In this document: positions 23,635 through 43,849 of the stretch, one piece after another
Position numbering within the stretch: position 1 is the stretch's first letter
Layout: each line of letters starts with the position of its first letter
Assembly (NCBI GenBank): GCA_963762565.1
Contig: CAVXLD010000005.1
Span: 352,001 to 416,000 of the forward strand
Direction: 5' to 3'
DNA: 64,000 nt
Source of the DNA: an uncultured Verrucomicrobiae bacterium
GTDB lineage: Bacteria; Verrucomicrobiota; Verrucomicrobiia; Chthoniobacterales; JAFAMB01
Made by a program: the position numbers and the translations under genes
The notes under the pieces: generated by a model
Seen by the model: only the letters and a program-made list of their open reading frames with translations
Database searches by the model: none
Told to the model about the DNA's origin: nothing

Positions 23635-23672
23635 GGGTGGGGGCGCTTCGTTCTCGTTCTCGTCCTCGTCGT

Positions 23673-24110
23673 CGTCCTCGAAACTCTGGTAGGGCGAGGC
23701 TCCAAAACGAAATAGGCCGCTGGCATACTTAGCGCCCGCGGCTGCTTCGTCTAATAGGTTACGCAAGCATGGCCGAGCCGGGGATGGCGCATGCCAAAGA
23801 TTGAGCGTGGTCTGTTGTCGCGAATCCCGTCTTGGTTCATCGCCCTGGTCGTGCCCCGCGTATTGGACCCAATCATACCGTCCCTGCGGGACGGATCGTG
23901 CGGGGTGCCCTTTCCAGGCATTTCATGCCAGGCTACCATCGTAAAGTCCCTCCGGGACAGAAACCTCACACGAGCCCGTCGCCGGGAGGGATCGCGTCCT
24001 CGCGATCCGTTGTTAACGAAGCCGAGGGCGTGTTCTAATCACCGGCGAAAATACGCCCTTGGGTTATGGTTTATCCTCGCGGCGCGCGGGGACGCGCGCC
24101 CTCCCCGAAT
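23673..24110. repeat. 438-bp composite REP element, copy 2 (preceded by a CGTCCT/CGTTCT array at 23648-23681)
   Basis: Homologous end-to-end to 12577-13014. Confidence 0.9.
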
Positions 24111-24176
24111 TGCGCCGCGTGTCCGACTTGCGGCAAAGCACGACAAAAAGCCCGGGGTACGCTAGAATATTGCCGG

Positions 24177-26927
24177 ATGAGCGGACCCCGTCGCGCCGAA
24201 GCTAGCGAAGGCGGAACCAGTCGCGCCGAAGCTGGCGAAGGCGGAAGTTTGCCCTGGACCCAGAGACTCTCCGCCCAGTGTTGGGACCAGCAGTTGGCCG
24301 AGGAAATATTGGCCAGGCTGGCTGAGTTTTCTCCTGATATCGAAACCCTTTACCGCCGATCGCCGAGTGAAGCGGTCGATCTTCTCAATTTTCTGTGTTT
24401 TTCGCCGGTTTCGCTGGAAAAGATCCGCCGGTCTCCAGATTTGCTGCTTTGGTTGGTCGCGCCCGATGTGCTCGACTTTCAGAAGGCAGAGCGACAAGGG
24501 AGGGACCGTGAGGGACCGGACCCCGATTTCAGGTCGCTGCGCGCTTGGAAATCGCAGGAGTTGTTGCGAGTGGCGTTTCGAGAAATCAGCGGGCTAGCTG
24601 GATTTGTCGAGACCACGCGCGACATAACGGAAATCGCTGAGCGATGTGTGCGCCAGGTTTATCGCGCGAGTCTTACGACGTTGAGCAGTCGATGGGGCGC
24701 GCCACAGACTGGCTTCGGCGTGCTAGGGATGGGGAAGCTTGGCGGCCGCGAACTGAACTATAGCTCGGATATAGATGTTATTTTTTTGTACGGAGAGGAA
24801 GGGTTCGTTAATCCGCGATTCAGTTACCACGAGTTTTTTACACGGTTGGCCGAAAAGATTGTGACCGAGTTCGCCGAGAGAGGCAACGCGCTCTTCCGAA
24901 TTGACTTGCGGTTGAGGCCGGAAGGCAGCTCTGGGCCATTAGTTCGGGGGCTTGCGAGCACAGAAAATTATTACGCCGGTTACGGCGAAACCTGGGAACG
25001 GATGGCGTTAATCAAAGCCAGAGGGATCGCAGGCGACCAAGAGCTCTTATACGAATTCGAACATCATCTTCAGCCGTTTATTTTTCCAAAAGCCGTTTCG
25101 GACGAATTACTGACCGAGATCGCGGCTGTGAAAGAACGGATCGAACGCGATTTGTTAGGAGTCGACGATCTGTATCGGAATGTGAAGCTCGGCTTTGGCG
25201 GGATCCGTGAAGTCGAGTTTATCGTGCAGACCCTGCAAGTGCTACATGGGGCTCGCAATGCCTTTCTGCAGGAACGTAATACCCTGGAAGCACTCAGCGC
25301 ATTGGCCGAGCTCGAGATTATGCCGCCCAAAGAGGTCAATGCGCTTCGGTCAGCCTATGTTTTCTTGCGTGCGGTCGAGCACCGTTTGCAGATTGTGCGA
25401 GAACAACAAACGCACACCTTGCCGGCGAAAACCGAGGATCGGTTTCTTTTGGCCAAGAGCCTGGGCCTGGATTCCGTAGAAGCGTTTGATCAACAGTACG
25501 GCGAGCAAACCTTCACCGTGCGAGTGATCTTTGATCGGTTGCTACAAAGCCGCTCAGGTGAAGTTGCCGAAAAGCGGGGGCGGGAATTTTTCTCTCAACC
25601 AATCGAGGCGAACCGAACCCTGGAACGACTCCAGGCGGGTCCGAGCGATATGCATGTATCGGCACGGACCCGTCGCCTGTACGCAAAGTTAGAACCGGAA
25701 CTACTCGGTTGGCTGGCCCAGATGGCGGATCCGGATGCAGCGTTGGGTCGGTTCGTTCGGTTTGTCGACAATTATGGGATCCGTGGCCTCCTATTCGAGA
25801 CGATGCTGGCCAATCCGAGATTGCTGGAGCTGTTGGTGCGTTTGTTTGATGCCAGCGCGGCATTTAGCGACTTGGCCATCCGGCGTCCGGAGTTGATCGA
25901 AGAAATTGCTCGTGGAAGATCATTGAATGCGACGGCTAGCGCCACCGAATACCTCGCCGCTCTTCAGGCTAATCCAGAGAACCTTGCGCCTTTGGAATGG
26001 GTAAGAGCCTTCCGCGAATCGGAGGTATTACGAATCTTACTCCGCGATATTTTGGGTACCGCCCCATTAGGTGAGTTGCAGGCCGAGATGACAAACTTGG
26101 CGGATGCTTGTGTCCGGTTCTGCCAAGGAAACATTCCTGGAGCGGACCGGCTGACTATCGTGACACTCGGAAAATTCGGTGGTCAAGAACTGCTTTATGG
26201 CGCCGACTTGGATGTCGTGTTTATCGGAGAAGAACCGGGACCGGCCGAACGGCTAATTGCGGCGCTCAGTGCCACCACTAACGCCGGCAGGGTATTCCCC
26301 ATCGATACCCGGTTACGGCCAGAGGGGGATAATGGGATGTTAGTAGTTACTATCAGTGGTTATGAGTCCTATTTCAACGGACGAGCGCAAACCTGGGAGC
26401 AACAAGCTTTGACCAAAGCCCGCGTTATCTCCGGCCCCGAAAGGGAGGAAGCAGAGAACCGGATCGCCAAGATTTGGGACCGCCTCCGGACCCGGCCTGA
26501 TACCAAGAGAGAAATTGCTGGTATGTATGAGCGGATTGTCAAGGCACGGGCCAAGAGCGGTGATTGGTACGAGTTTAAAACCGGCCGCGGTGGATTGATT
26601 GGTATAGAATTCCTGGTGCAATCGCTTGAGATTGAGCTCGGGGTTCGCGAACCAAATACATTGAAGGCCCTTGACCGGGTTGGGCGCCGGCTAGAGAAAG
26701 ACGAATCAGAGACCTTGGCGAACGATTACCTTTTCTATCGCCGAATTGAATCGATCCTGCGCCGGGTAAACAATCAATCCGTTTCTAGCATCCCGTTGCC
26801 GGAGCCCGAGCAGAAAAAACTCGCTTTACGGATGGGGTTTCGAGATCGCGAAACATTCCTGGATGACTACCGCCTGCGCCGCAGCCGCGACGATAAAATG
26901 GTGCGGAGATATTTTTATGGAGCGTAA
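24177..26927 (+). CDS. glnE: Bifunctional glutamine synthetase adenylyltransferase/adenylyl-removing enzyme
   Basis: Two NT domains: GMGKLGGRELNYSSDID...DLRLRPEG and LGKFGGQELLYGADLD...DTRLRPEG; ATG 24177 preferred because the upstream extension runs through the REP. Confidence 0.93.
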   Translation: MSGPRRAEASEGGTSRAEAGEGGSLPWTQRLSAQCWDQQLAEEILARLAEFSPDIETLYRRSPSEAVDLLNFLCFSPVSLEKIRRSPDLLLWLVAPDVLDFQKAERQGRDREGPDPDFRSLRAWKSQELLRVAFREISGLAGFVETTRDITEIAERCVRQVYRASLTTLSSRWGAPQTGFGVLGMGKLGGRELNYSSDIDVIFLYGEEGFVNPRFSYHEFFTRLAEKIVTEFAERGNALFRIDLRLRPEGSSGPLVRGLASTENYYAGYGETWERMALIKARGIAGDQELLYEFEHHLQPFIFPKAVSDELLTEIAAVKERIERDLLGVDDLYRNVKLGFGGIREVEFIVQTLQVLHGARNAFLQERNTLEALSALAELEIMPPKEVNALRSAYVFLRAVEHRLQIVREQQTHTLPAKTEDRFLLAKSLGLDSVEAFDQQYGEQTFTVRVIFDRLLQSRSGEVAEKRGREFFSQPIEANRTLERLQAGPSDMHVSARTRRLYAKLEPELLGWLAQMADPDAALGRFVRFVDNYGIRGLLFETMLANPRLLELLVRLFDASAAFSDLAIRRPELIEEIARGRSLNATASATEYLAALQANPENLAPLEWVRAFRESEVLRILLRDILGTAPLGELQAEMTNLADACVRFCQGNIPGADRLTIVTLGKFGGQELLYGADLDVVFIGEEPGPAERLIAALSATTNAGRVFPIDTRLRPEGDNGMLVVTISGYESYFNGRAQTWEQQALTKARVISGPEREEAENRIAKIWDRLRTRPDTKREIAGMYERIVKARAKSGDWYEFKTGRGGLIGIEFLVQSLEIELGVREPNTLKALDRVGRRLEKDESETLANDYLFYRRIESILRRVNNQSVSSIPLPEPEQKKLALRMGFRDRETFLDDYRLRRSRDDKMVRRYFYGA

Positions 26928-27232: not shown

Positions 27233-30034
27233 GTGCCTACTGACGTTTCCGTCCAACTTTTCAACCATGTCGACGACGCCTGGTCTGACGGACTGCGTGA
27301 CTGGTTAGACACAGGGTCCGAAGCAGCGTTGTCCGGTGAGAAAGTCTGGATGGTTTGCCGTTCGTTCGTCCAGGCAAATTGGTTACGCCGGCGCTTCCTG
27401 GAAGCGAACCAGACGTTGATGGGGGTCCGCTTTCTCGATCTACGGCGGCTCCGGCGCGAGCTCTGTTTGCGCGCGAGCCTCCCAACACCTTCTTTCGGCC
27501 GGGAAACATTGAGTCTGATCCTGCGAGCGAACATGACGGAGGCGGAAGCTGCATCGGCCTATGCCGGACAACTGCTCGATGCATTGGACAATCTTGCGGC
27601 CTGTGGCTGGCTCGACCGGTTTGGCGCCGATGCAGCCATGAATGTTCTCCACGTGACGCAGAGCCTACGGCCGGCGGTGCGTGGGATCATCGACTCAATG
27701 CTTTGGCGTCCACGGGTGGATCAAGCCTTGCTCGAAAAACAAGTCCAGATCCGAGACCTGCGTCTTGGTTTCTTTGGATTGGATGCTCAGTCTCTTGATC
27801 AACAGGCCTTGATCGCGGCGGCGGTATCCGCATCTGAGCAAACCCATTTTTGGATCGCTCAACCACTGGTAGCTCAGGATATTTTCATGCGTTGGATTGA
27901 GCGGCTGGAGACTCTTTTGCCCGCGACGGTCACGGTGGCTGCTAGCGAGGGTAAACCTCGGCCCTATGAGGATGTAGTTAGTCAGTTTGTTTATCCCACC
28001 CAGCCACCGGAGACGCTTCCTCGAGTCGTTCGCGGCGCTCGTTGGTCAGACCAGATCCGCGCGGTGGTCGCTGTCGTCCAAGAGGCATTTAGGCGTGGCT
28101 GCCGGGACGTGGCTATCGCCATTCCCCAAAGCTCACCATCCGGCGCCGCCATAGTCGAGGCTTTGATCGCCGCCGGGATTCCGGTCAGCGACGAGTTTCG
28201 CTCAAATGCGATCCTGGCTTTCTCGGAAAGAGTTCATCGTTGGTTAGCCGATTGGGTGGCCGGTCCGCGAACCCCAGAAAAGCTACTGCATTTGTTTGGC
28301 TTGCTCGCGCACGGACCGGAGAGTTACGGACGCTTTCGTAAGTATCTGTTAAAACAGTTTGATGACCGGCAGACACGCTTAGTTGCGGAGCTCGTGCCGG
28401 CCGACGGCGGCTATCTTTGGATCCGGGAACTAGTGGAATTCGGGCCGGACTGGCCGCCAAACGGGTCCTGGAAACAGCTGGATGCTAAATGGTCTGAAAC
28501 ACTTACCCGGTTTCAAGAATTCCTAAATCAGCATCGATCTTTTTTACGAGCGGCGCGCATCTCTCTCGAACCCTTACAACCAAATTGGGATGAAATTCAA
28601 AACGCGCTCGGAGACTTGGTCATTTCATCGAGCCTTTTTCTCCGGTTCGTGTCGGATTCTCTTTCGGGGCCAAGCCGGGTCGGGCATCCGGAAGCATCGC
28701 ACCGTTATGCTCCCGTCGTAGTCAGTACACCGGAACAACTTCACGCGACCAGCTGGGACGCCGTGGTTTTGGTTGATGGGATCGGCGATCTCTGGACGCG
28801 TCCGGTTGAACAGGATTCATTGCTTAATCAGGAATTCAGAGCCCAAACCCGCGATGAAGGATTCCTGCTGCCAACGATTCAGGATCAGGCATCGCTCCGG
28901 GAAGACGCCATTCTCCAACTAATTCAGCATGGACGCTCTTCCGTAACGGTTTGCGGGTACGCGAAAGAGGAGAGCGGTGAAGAAGTCGACGCGAATCGGT
29001 TTGTAACGTTTCTCGAACACAGCCTGCGCGCTGTCCCAGTCATATTCGAACCCGCTGCCATCGAGCCGAGGATTCTGTATCCATTGCTGGGGAAGATTCG
29101 CCAGGACCGCTGCGATCCGGAACATGGTTTTGACGAGTATCTCTTCGACTTCAGCAGCCTGGATCTGAAGCCGGATGCATGGCCGGCGTCGGAACTACAG
29201 AGAGCAATTGCGGCGCCCGGCACCTTTGCCTTTAGACAATTATTCGGTCTCAGACGGACTTGGGATCGCCGATTTGAACGCGATGGCCGGAGGACATTGG
29301 GAACCACGCTTCACGAGCTCATGAAGGTGATCCTGCGCAATCCGTTCGGAGACTTGTTCAAACAAGGTCTCGCAGATTTGAGCCAGAGTTCCGACTTAAA
29401 AGAGAGCCGCGGACCGAATGCCTTCCGGCACATTACTAAAATCGCGCTGAGATGGAATCTGCCGTCCGAGGATGCTTGGTGGCAATCGATCATCGCGAAA
29501 GCGGCGCACCTGGTTGAAGGGATGTCGCAGAAGCTAATGGAGTGGTTGGCAGACTTTCCTTACGGAATCTCGGAATATTCTTCGGGGGATAAAGTCGTGC
29601 CGGAACTGCAACTGTTTTTGAAAGGCCGCTTTGATCTTTTACTAGCCAATGTTGACCACATTGAGGGGGCCGACATTGTTATAATCGACTTCAAAACCAC
29701 GAACTCGATTCGGCGCTTCAACCCGGATACTGGCGAAGGTTTCCAGATCGTCGCCTACACATTGTTAGCCAAAGTAATGGGCGCGGCGCATTGCGCTCAG
29801 TGCGTGTTCACGCCGGCCAACGCGAAAGAATTAGATCTTAATAAAGGAGCTGACGAGATTGTGGCGAAACTCGACGAATTGTCTTGGATCCAAGAGACGA
29901 ACTGCTTCGGTCACGCTCCGTTGTTAAAGCAGGAATTTGCTATCAACGAAGCGCTGCCTTTAGCGACACTAACTATCCCTGTTTGGGTTTTGAGGAAGAA
30001 ACGGGCGTTGATGCTAGAGGGGATTGTGGATTGA
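27233..30034 (+). CDS. AddB/RexB-like subunit: degenerate helicase-like N-terminus plus C-terminal PD-(D/E)XK nuclease
   Basis: GTTLHE, LKGRFDL...IIDFKT...QIVAY; upstream of a UvrD helicase-nuclease. Confidence 0.75.
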   Translation: MPTDVSVQLFNHVDDAWSDGLRDWLDTGSEAALSGEKVWMVCRSFVQANWLRRRFLEANQTLMGVRFLDLRRLRRELCLRASLPTPSFGRETLSLILRANMTEAEAASAYAGQLLDALDNLAACGWLDRFGADAAMNVLHVTQSLRPAVRGIIDSMLWRPRVDQALLEKQVQIRDLRLGFFGLDAQSLDQQALIAAAVSASEQTHFWIAQPLVAQDIFMRWIERLETLLPATVTVAASEGKPRPYEDVVSQFVYPTQPPETLPRVVRGARWSDQIRAVVAVVQEAFRRGCRDVAIAIPQSSPSGAAIVEALIAAGIPVSDEFRSNAILAFSERVHRWLADWVAGPRTPEKLLHLFGLLAHGPESYGRFRKYLLKQFDDRQTRLVAELVPADGGYLWIRELVEFGPDWPPNGSWKQLDAKWSETLTRFQEFLNQHRSFLRAARISLEPLQPNWDEIQNALGDLVISSSLFLRFVSDSLSGPSRVGHPEASHRYAPVVVSTPEQLHATSWDAVVLVDGIGDLWTRPVEQDSLLNQEFRAQTRDEGFLLPTIQDQASLREDAILQLIQHGRSSVTVCGYAKEESGEEVDANRFVTFLEHSLRAVPVIFEPAAIEPRILYPLLGKIRQDRCDPEHGFDEYLFDFSSLDLKPDAWPASELQRAIAAPGTFAFRQLFGLRRTWDRRFERDGRRTLGTTLHELMKVILRNPFGDLFKQGLADLSQSSDLKESRGPNAFRHITKIALRWNLPSEDAWWQSIIAKAAHLVEGMSQKLMEWLADFPYGISEYSSGDKVVPELQLFLKGRFDLLLANVDHIEGADIVIIDFKTTNSIRRFNPDTGEGFQIVAYTLLAKVMGAAHCAQCVFTPANAKELDLNKGADEIVAKLDELSWIQETNCFGHAPLLKQEFAINEALPLATLTIPVWVLRKKRALMLEGIVD

Positions 30035-30066
30035 ACCCAAGATATAGAATAACCCGTGACCTCTTA

Positions 30067-30598
30067 ATCGTTCTCGTCCTCGTCGTCGTCCTCGTCCTCG
30101 ATTTTGACCCTGCGTTTTCCACCTCCCATTAACTCACCATTCCACATCATGTTCGACCACGAAAAACTCGACGTCTACCAAATCGAACTGAAATTCCTCG
30201 GTTGGGCAACAGAGTTTTTGGTCGAATTGGCCGAGGTACCGTCTCCTGTAAATAAACGAGAGCTATCCGATCAACTCGATCGTGCGAGTCTTTCCGCGCT
30301 CTTAGACACCGCCGAAGGCAACGGAAGACGTCAGGGCAAACAACGTGCTAAATTCTTCGATGACGCTCGTAGATCAGCATTTGAATGCGCGGCGTGTTTG
30401 GACGCATCGGTGGCGAAGGAATTGTCGACGGTGGAGCGGATTCAGCCCGGCAAAGACCTGTTGCAGCGTATCGTGGCGATGCTGTCGAAACTGGTCGAGA
30501 GGTTCGATCCTGATTCGTACCGCGTGAGGGAAGGTGAAAACGAGCTGGGTGAGGCGGAACCTATCGAGGACGAGGACGACGACGAGGACGAGAACGAT
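30067..30598. mobile_element. Cassette bounded by perfect 36-bp inverted repeats carrying a four-helix-bundle gene
   Basis: atcgttctcgtcctcgtcgtcgtcctcgtcctcgat (30067-30102) is the exact reverse complement of 30563-30598. Confidence 0.75.
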
Positions 30599-30621
30599 AC
30601 GCGAGGGGGCGGGGCACATTC

Positions 30622-30625
<4 letters not shown>
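30149..30625 (+). CDS. Four helix bundle protein (23S rRNA IVS protein / Avd-like family)
   Basis: MFDHEKLDVYQ, DQLDRAS.S...AEG, FFDDAR.SA.ECAACLD, RIVAMLSKL. Confidence 0.88.
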
Positions 30626-33591
<2,966 letters not shown>

Positions 33592-43179: not shown

Positions 43180-43785
43180 CTATCTAGCGCGGCGCTGACT
43201 GCGCATGCGATACATGCGCTCCGTGAAACCGCCCTCTTCTAGGAAATGTTTTCCGAGGCTAGCGAGCTGACGATCCAAGAGCGAGCAGGCGACCGCGATC
43301 AGTACGAGGGCGGCGTTCGCGGCGATTTCGCAGTACCGTTGCTGCCGGCGGCTATGAGCGAGACGGCTACGGGTCTCTCTCACCCATCGCGCCACTTCCG
43401 CTGCGCTGCCGCAGCGCGCATCGATGAGTTCTTGTCGTAGTGGCTCTGAAAAGGACCATTCCTTGAATCCTCTTTGGCGGAGAAAGTCTCGATAATCGCG
43501 CTTCAGCTCTTCGAGACTGAACCGTGCCGTATCAGTGAGCTTCAGCTCAGTCTTCTTTGAGGTGCCGCTGGAGGCACTCCCTTCAACGATATTCTGCGTG
43601 CCGCTCCTCGCGGCCTGGACCATCTGATCATGAGTGCGGCTACGTCTTTCGACGTACCGTTCGCAAAAGCGAACCGTCACATCGAAGCAGAGCTCCGCCA
43701 TCTGGAAACTTTTCAGCTTCCGGTACCCGCCATGCGGCGGGATAAGACCATCGCCGTCAGGCGTGTCGTCAGAACGTCTCTCCAT
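43180..43785 (-). CDS. Four helix bundle protein with suffix domain
   Basis: LIPPHGGYRKLKSFQ, DQMVQAARSG.QNI.EGS, KLT..AR.SLEEL..DY, LLDRQL...F..EGGFTERMY; ATG 43785. Confidence 0.88.
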   Translation of the reverse strand: MERRSDDTPDGDGLIPPHGGYRKLKSFQMAELCFDVTVRFCERYVERRSRTHDQMVQAARSGTQNIVEGSASSGTSKKTELKLTDTARFSLEELKRDYRDFLRQRGFKEWSFSEPLRQELIDARCGSAAEVARWVRETRSRLAHSRRQQRYCEIAANAALVLIAVACSLLDRQLASLGKHFLEEGGFTERMYRMRSQRRAR

Positions 43786-43849
43786 GGAGAAGAGACATAT
43801 ATCATAACATAAAATATTCAAGTTGTATATTCGCGGCCCCGCCAGAATA

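Follow-up and report, generated by a model that had tools for sequence, protein, structure and literature searches.

A four-helix-bundle gene enclosed by inverted repeats lies between the addB-like and addA-like genes of an uncultured Verrucomicrobiae bacterium, which raises the question of what kind of element this gene belongs to. The initial annotation proposed a gene-bearing mobile or RNA-processing element without a transposase, whose transcript would fold into a 36-bp stem and loop out the gene, like an intervening sequence (IVS) of 23S rRNA but in mRNA. We examined the window, i.e., the whole stretch of 64,000 nucleotides, together with its genome (G000, 93.7% complete) and a same-genus group of sister genomes that includes G001, G002, G003, G004, and G005. 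The relevant features of the window are the following.

23648 to 23681, forward strand: solo arm of the CTCGTN family, 13 nt behind the stop codon of a DAGK-family gene
27233 to 30034, forward strand: addB-like gene, the upstream neighbor, with a C-terminal PD-(D/E)XK domain
30067 to 30102, forward strand: left arm, six TCG-containing hexamer units; the commonest variant of the genome's CTCGTN repeat family
30149 to 30625, forward strand: four-helix-bundle gene of 158 amino acids (PF05635/TIGR02436), ATG at 30149 and TGA at 30625
30563 to 30598, reverse strand: right arm, the exact reverse complement of the left arm; the open reading frame reads through it into an acidic tail
30622 to 33591, forward strand: addA-like gene, the downstream neighbor, with UvrD helicase and PD-(D/E)XK domains
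43180 to 43791, reverse strand: second PF05635-family gene of the window (TIGR02436 plus a TIGR04258 suffix domain)

The architecture described initially was largely upheld. The two arms are identical at 36/36 positions once one is reverse complemented, with no extension of the match on either side. The reading frame runs through the right arm, which codes for the acidic tail IEDEDDDEDEND, and the stop codon of the cassette gene overlaps the addA start codon as ATGA. The cassette is a gene-bearing member of a repeat family and has no transposase inside, PF05635 being its only Pfam match. The solo arm at 23648, reported as the same sequence, is identical at only 31/34 positions. No Rfam match at E values up to 1 was found between 29900 and 30800, and the cassette sits between addB and addA, not in an rRNA gene. 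A consensus scan of positions 29900 to 30700 yielded no promoter or terminator belonging to the cassette itself.

The cassette protein scores 51 bits against PF05635 (cut-off, 33.8) and 51.4 bits against TIGR02436 (cut-off, 24); a close homolog is labeled Chthoniobacterales, and the sequencing runs with matches are soil metagenomes. Its predicted model has four helices (residues 4 to 119) followed by a low-confidence tail (residues 123 to 158). The nearest solved structures in a fold search were the pentamers 2GSC (Xcc0516) and 2RLD (BT_0352), with a best E value of 0.005. A prediction of self-association with four copies scored 0.58 (best control, 0.00; one run only 0.06), a pass that may come from likeness to 2GSC; the mark was reached by 20 of 30 solved pairs and by 1 of 23 single chains, and the runs share at least 76% of contacts at a pLDDT of at least 78.

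Avd of diversity-generating retroelements (4DWL) appeared in the same fold search at rank 30, with 9% identity. This likeness brings up one scenario, in which a reverse transcriptase would write tandem units, templated by RNA, with the cassette protein as its Avd-like partner. According to the accessible part of 10.1101/2023.10.23.563531, Avd is a nucleic acid-binding pentameric barrel said to resemble S23 proteins; moreover, unit number varies among arrays, and reverse transcriptase genes are present in G000. Yet the fold match is weak and the cassette has no linked reverse transcriptase: PF00078 matches in G000 lie more than 100 kb from the family genes or on other contigs, and the draft genome G060 has no such match despite 383 matches to the repeat pattern. 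The cassette arm is, besides, a fixed 33-nt word and not a free array. We consider this scenario highly improbable.

Two normally conserved positions had been described as substituted, and the copy as possibly decaying. Two private changes, N53D and G75R, stand (N and G each occur in 120/120 homologs), and residue 75 falls in the predicted subunit interface; the T of the DTAEG motif is normal in the clade. An assembly error was set aside, since both changes recur in a contig of 99+% identity from run X1, which may be the source sample itself; a contig from another study (X5) has N and G at positions 53 and 75. Private changes are common among homologs, with a median of two at 84 conserved columns and three in this copy. 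Decay thus applies to this strain only, whose copy is probably impaired by two recent substitutions, and not to its orthologs, for which six pairwise comparisons gave dN/dS values of 0.03 to 0.07, against 0.06 to 0.11 for addA (rough values, as dS is near saturation). As judged from these alignments, the cassette gene is under purifying selection.

To trace the history of the site, we surveyed 24 relative loci with addA, 19 of them from other genera. As anticipated, relatives have empty sites: the gene is present in 0/19 loci of other genera, and in 12 of the 19 addB and addA overlap or lie within about 10 nt of each other (starts estimated). Within the genus, G003 carries the whole cassette at addB-addA and G004 carries it split over two contigs, while G002 and G005 retain an interrupted right arm with neither gene nor left arm; the G001 locus lacks addB. 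A metagenome contig has the cassette ahead of addA with shorter arms. On sequence comparison, the distribution is that of one gain in the genus followed by loss through deletion in two of four sister genomes, and within the genus the cassette seems to stay in place instead of moving actively. Synonymous divergence at positions 30149 to 30550 is about twice as high in the cassette gene as in addA (1.1 to 2.4 versus 0.6 to 1.0), in a small sample of overlapping genome sets with values near saturation.

If the arms belong with the gene, other members of the protein family should carry them as well, as the initial annotation suggested. Inverted tandem arms accompany seven of eight four-helix-bundle genes in G000 and 113 of 136 sampled loci, compared with 5/136 for direct repeats and 13/300 for mismatched pairs (inverted flanks counted at a score of at least 14). 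Of about 210 matches in 43 family genomes, 129 entered the sample, taken best-scoring first with some near contig ends skipped; further loci raised it to 166, of which 159 gave a profile hit, and 5 were then dropped as duplicates or wrong genes and 18 for short flanks or low score. Arm units at the seven armed G000 genes have 6, 7, or 8 bases, and the eighth PF05635 match has an upstream 9-mer doublet only. Upstream of the second family gene of the window lies a GTGGAC doublet of 9-mers, and no arm matching it was seen downstream.

The arm unit follows the protein clade, also at unrelated sites (quick tree, 152 rows), and hexamer arms stand on both sides in 11/16 loci of the cassette's own clade. 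As read from sequence, the clade-unit match shows co-inheritance, not binding, since kin share labels; visual inspection of clade consensus lines revealed no readable residue-to-base code. Genomes hold up to a dozen paralogs, each with its own unit, many of them broken, and four abundant repeat classes of G000 that have no gene there bracket family genes in relatives. At two loci, L042 (G022) and L044 (G016), whole doublets rather than single arms flank the gene, inverted in the former and direct in the latter, as REPINs flank RAYT genes.

Similar layouts surround other protein families. All 11 GxxExxY loci examined (PD-(D/E)XK fold, TIGR04256) have inverted flanks (scores of 19 to 95), many with 9-mer units, and all five RAYT loci examined have REP-type flanks. 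G000 has 12 Y1_Tnp and 14 PDDEXK_3 matches, and its Y1_Tnp genes have other flanks than the cassette. These matches leave room for a passenger scenario, in which some other enzyme, e.g., a RAYT or a GxxExxY nuclease, moved an independent repeat doublet that came to enclose the gene by accident; that repeats nest within one another and outlive the gene would agree with it. An accident, however, does not account for inverted flanks at 113 of 136 family loci or for a unit that follows the clade at unrelated sites, and RAYT and GxxExxY genes carry their own, different arms. This is the least probable of the scenarios considered here.

Most arms of the cassette's repeat class are dispersed in G000 and have no gene between them. 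The genome contains 187 arrays of at least three (C/G)TCGTN units, most often six (83/187); a match of five units to a pentameric ring was discarded because the mode is six, not five. The 33-nt core of the cassette arm has 32 exact copies and is the top variant, with 31 of 103 full-length arrays (the next variant has 9). The perfect match between the cassette arms is therefore less surprising than it appears, because the arm is the commonest variant genome-wide, although the cassette is alone among 24 doublets in having identical arms. Chance or a simple microsatellite was rejected as an origin, given a defined word with 32 exact copies and a fixed polarity: array pairs within 1.5 kb comprise 24 in the cassette polarity, 3 in the opposite polarity, and 1 direct. 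In 17 of the 24 doublets, 88 to 128 nt separate the cores, and only one doublet, the cassette itself, encloses the gene. By crude gene calls, 23/187 arrays lie inside genes, and a stop codon lies within 60 nt on the outer side of 73/187 arms and on the inner side of 5.

None of the 24 doublets has a target duplication of at least 3 bp, and none of 232 doublet spacers from nine repeat classes is nearly identical to another (90% identity), so no recent whole-doublet copy was caught among them. The cassette family thus differs from miniature inverted-repeat elements (MITEs) and insertion sequences in lacking both target-site duplications and near-identical dispersed copies. Nor are the doublets deletion derivatives of the cassette, since their spacers show no homology to its interior. 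Arm-to-arm copying inside gene-less doublets was not seen either, as arms are scarcely more alike within one doublet than between doublets (0.865 versus 0.844).

Could the arms act in RNA? In such a module, they would pair in the addB-addA transcript, RNase III would cut the stem as in 23S IVSs, the protein would bind repeat RNA, and the doublets would be mRNA processing or stability signals. The 36-bp stem is present in the predicted fold (−250.9 kcal/mol; z = −10.4, 20 shuffles), arms hug stop codons, and Avd binds an RNA stem-loop in the accessible part of 10.1101/2023.10.23.563531. Moreover, the accessible text of PMC4990558 describes an open reading frame-bearing 23S rRNA IVS of Coxiella that encodes a protein of the same family (S23p) within terminal inverted repeats able to form a stem (28 bp, versus 36 bp in the cassette) that RNase III cuts, with heptamer repeats (GACAGAT) beside the gene; G000 has an ACAGATG class with 41 arrays. 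Unlike that IVS, the cassette lies between protein genes, its gene is under purifying selection, and hundreds of gene-less arms occur elsewhere.

No support emerged for selection on an mRNA stem or for its processing in the manner of an IVS: the stem can form, but arm mismatches in 116 loci show no sense-strand G·U excess and lean slightly the opposite way (119 G·U-type versus 158 A·C-type mismatches; 32 versus 41 loci). No skipped or excised cassette joints occurred in the DNA contigs of four of 20 listed runs, an uninformative result because records are cut at arms and contigs drop rare forms. RNA processing is unsupported, as searches for target duplications, for skipped-form contigs, and for a G·U bias on the mRNA strand were all negative. 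Cutting would also truncate the gene's own message, because the right arm lies inside the reading frame. Further points against the RNA scenario are that the two arms of a gene-less doublet are barely more alike than arms of different ones and that doublets lie between genes of every orientation (16 codirectional, 4 convergent, and 4 divergent); it also leaves unexplained the genome-wide replacement of arm variants and the turnover at orthologous sites (see below). We regard it as unlikely.

Arm variants differ among the sister genomes. Both arms of the G003 cassette depart from those of G000 at the same two positions. The arm word of G000 occurs 57 times in G000 and 3 times in G003, whereas that of G003 occurs 0 times in G000 and 51 times in G003; both words are present in G004 and G005. 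At the sequence level, the cassette arms follow the dominant, genome-specific variant, and the direction of change may run from the cassette as template or may reflect conversion or selection of all arms together. Individual sites turn over as well: three G000 doublets are missing in 12/12 orthologous comparisons, where other elements occur, often inside the same outer TAGGAGC arms, and the solo-arm site at 23648 holds other repeat classes in 3/3 sister genomes. A search for a clean empty site with exact ends found none, the divergence of the sister genomes being too great. Among 11 genomes that carry the gene of this clade or a fragment of it, 7 have at least 10 pattern matches, versus 3 of 30 genomes without, and G002 has 101 pattern matches and no gene match.

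The association extends beyond the phylum. In Xanthomonas, arrays of GGGAATC are described in the accessible part of PMC4692102 as intergenic, of fixed polarity, near stop codons, and often in convergent pairs; they are mostly conserved in place between two species, unlinked to mobile elements, and treated there as G-quadruplex candidates. The main text of that report contains no instance of "helix bundle," "S23," or "transposase." The cassette unit cannot form G-quadruplex tracts; the likeness is that GGGAATC repeats bracket an Xcc0516-like (2GSC) gene in the genomes sampled here. We chose 5 of 19 genomes on the GGGAATC repeat alone, and the prediction that its arms bracket a family gene was borne out in two Xanthomonas genomes and one Luteimonas genome, each with one family gene and GGGAATC-type arms on both sides. 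By eye, the protein closely matches the corresponding 2GSC stretch. The gene occupies the same operon position in both genera, between genes that we take to be accB and accC. One such gene is also present in a Gemmatimonadaceae genome, where the only arm lies downstream, and a Frateuria genome has 40 GGGAAT matches and no family gene found. Among 81 genomes of the order, a family gene was found in 10/13 with the repeat and 16/68 without (Fisher p = 0.0004, overstated by kinship). G061 and G130 have 40 and 65 GGGAAT matches, respectively, with no family-gene hit. In G113, GGGAAT matches are strongly strand skewed (7 forward and 209 reverse), unlike in other genomes.

A conserved operon position is what a host regulator would also show, i.e., a domesticated DNA- or RNA-binding factor whose selected sites are the arrays beside gene ends, with its own arms autoregulatory and the rest spread by slippage and gene conversion. 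Purifying selection, stable position, the bias of arrays to gene ends, and the lack of recent identical doublets fit this scenario. However, sister species hold different repeat classes in orthologous gaps, which a regulon would not tolerate; furthermore, genomes carry many paralogs with separate units, often broken, and the same layout recurs at GxxExxY and RAYT genes. We find a regulatory role quite unlikely. The regulator, reverse transcriptase-partner, and passenger scenarios all fit less well than either the RNA scenario or the partnership between protein and repeat that we set out below.

The system that the cassette most brings to mind is REPIN-RAYT. In the accessible parts of PMC3116915, 10.1101/2022.05.22.493013, and PMC3733652, a single-copy, mostly vertically inherited gene is flanked by its own repeat, which is also dispersed as extragenic inverted doublets with spacers and has a commonest "master" variant; repeats are fewer where the gene is lost. 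The cassette family shares these features, and no target duplication was seen here. The two systems differ in that a four-helix bundle here replaces the HUH (Y1) tyrosine transposase, the arms are tandem 6- to 9-mers (hexamers at the cassette) and not palindromic REPs, and the spacers are about 100 nt and never nearly identical.

By analogy, a dispersed repeat family may have its resident "master" locus in the cassette, where the four-helix-bundle protein takes the transposase's place. The gene is conserved in place under purifying selection while the dispersed copies turn over, and the right arm has been taken into the reading frame as a disordered acidic tail. We infer that the protein forms a ring like those of Avd and Xcc0516 and recognizes its own tandem unit. 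More tentatively, this recognition may take place on DNA in single-stranded or hairpin form and, aided by the host's recombination or repair machinery or by a further activity of the protein, might allow arms to be copied to new sites or rewritten in place, either way with no target duplication. To our knowledge, the four-helix-bundle family has no catalytic fold. We give an even chance to this RAYT/REPIN-like partnership, in which an Avd-like ring would recognize its own repeat and promote the copying or rewriting of arms. Several observations count against it. Repeats persist without a cognate gene (G002, G061, G130, and the four large G000 classes), neither a young doublet nor a clean empty site turned up, and units shared within a clade may be co-inheritance alone; in addition, the Xanthomonas repeats are mostly in place and unlinked to mobile elements, according to the accessible part of PMC4692102.

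A broader proposal is possible but doubtful: that four-helix-bundle (S23p/Avd-like) rings are sequence-specific drivers of transposase-free selfish DNA, each subfamily recognizing one unit of 6 to 9 bases, with arms written or converted chromosome-wide around variable resident DNA. If so, orphan heptamer arrays in many phyla, among them GGGAATC of Xanthomonas, would have these rings as their cognate proteins. Open reading frame-bearing 23S IVSs would then represent copies inserted into rRNA, and cassettes with GxxExxY nucleases would form a class parallel to this one.

Separate publications already exist on the protein family, the IVS case, and the Xanthomonas arrays. In the literature searched, which mostly lacked subscription journals, we found no description of repeat-armed family cassettes outside 23S rRNA and none joining the family, the IVS, and the Xanthomonas arrays. 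The present locus contributes a genome-specific master variant, evidence against pairing at the mRNA level, and a prediction that was borne out in Xanthomonadaceae. Together, these results suggest that a widespread and so far unexplained class of short bacterial repeats has its missing partner in the four-helix-bundle family. Two open questions are thereby tied, namely, the role of a very common family with solved structures and the origin of abundant intergenic arrays of 6 to 9 bases, and each gene's arm becomes its candidate ligand. Should the protein drive the spread, it would embody a novel mode of DNA movement or rewriting and offer a naturally occurring collection of programmable repeat binders.

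Some further observations concern the repeats and genes around the cassette. The spacer family proved to be nested in TAGGAGC doublets; CTCGTN doublets lie within such doublets at G000:C10:495040-495340, C1:135840-136160, and C3:312330-312620, and sister genomes often retain the outer TAGGAGC arms with a different inner element of similar size. A search for the spacer family in four sister genomes gave no match, which is uninformative at such divergence. Many CTCGTN arrays (e.g., G000:C1:477563) belong to a set of short arrays that end at GTCGTY followed by CTTCCGACTTCGC, a different element inserted at a fixed point of the arm. GxxExxY 9-mer units, such as GCAGATTAC and GCAGAGGAC, also form gene-less doublets about 100 nt apart, and the G000 GxxExxY genes (e.g., L098 to L107, at C1:116913, C11:163341, C11:64902, and C1:643983) constitute a parallel cassette class with a nuclease fold. 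Many genes of the four-helix-bundle, GxxExxY, and RAYT families share an upstream AT-rich motif like TATGTTAT, which resembles an extended −10 promoter and is located within the left arm; examples are the minus strand of the window at 43800 to 43830 and loci L042, L045, and L046, and the addB-addA cassette is without it. Near the solo arm (window positions 23635 to 24180), G002 and G004 have one more gene, membrane-protein-like, separating the DAGK-family gene from glnE; G000 and G003 retain just the last bases of this additional gene. Finally, several paralogs of the family are frameshifted; in G000, one with GTAAGCA arms (C3:44245-44815) is split by an insertion of about 210 bp, and a 53-amino-acid fragment at C3:960231 derives from another family clade.
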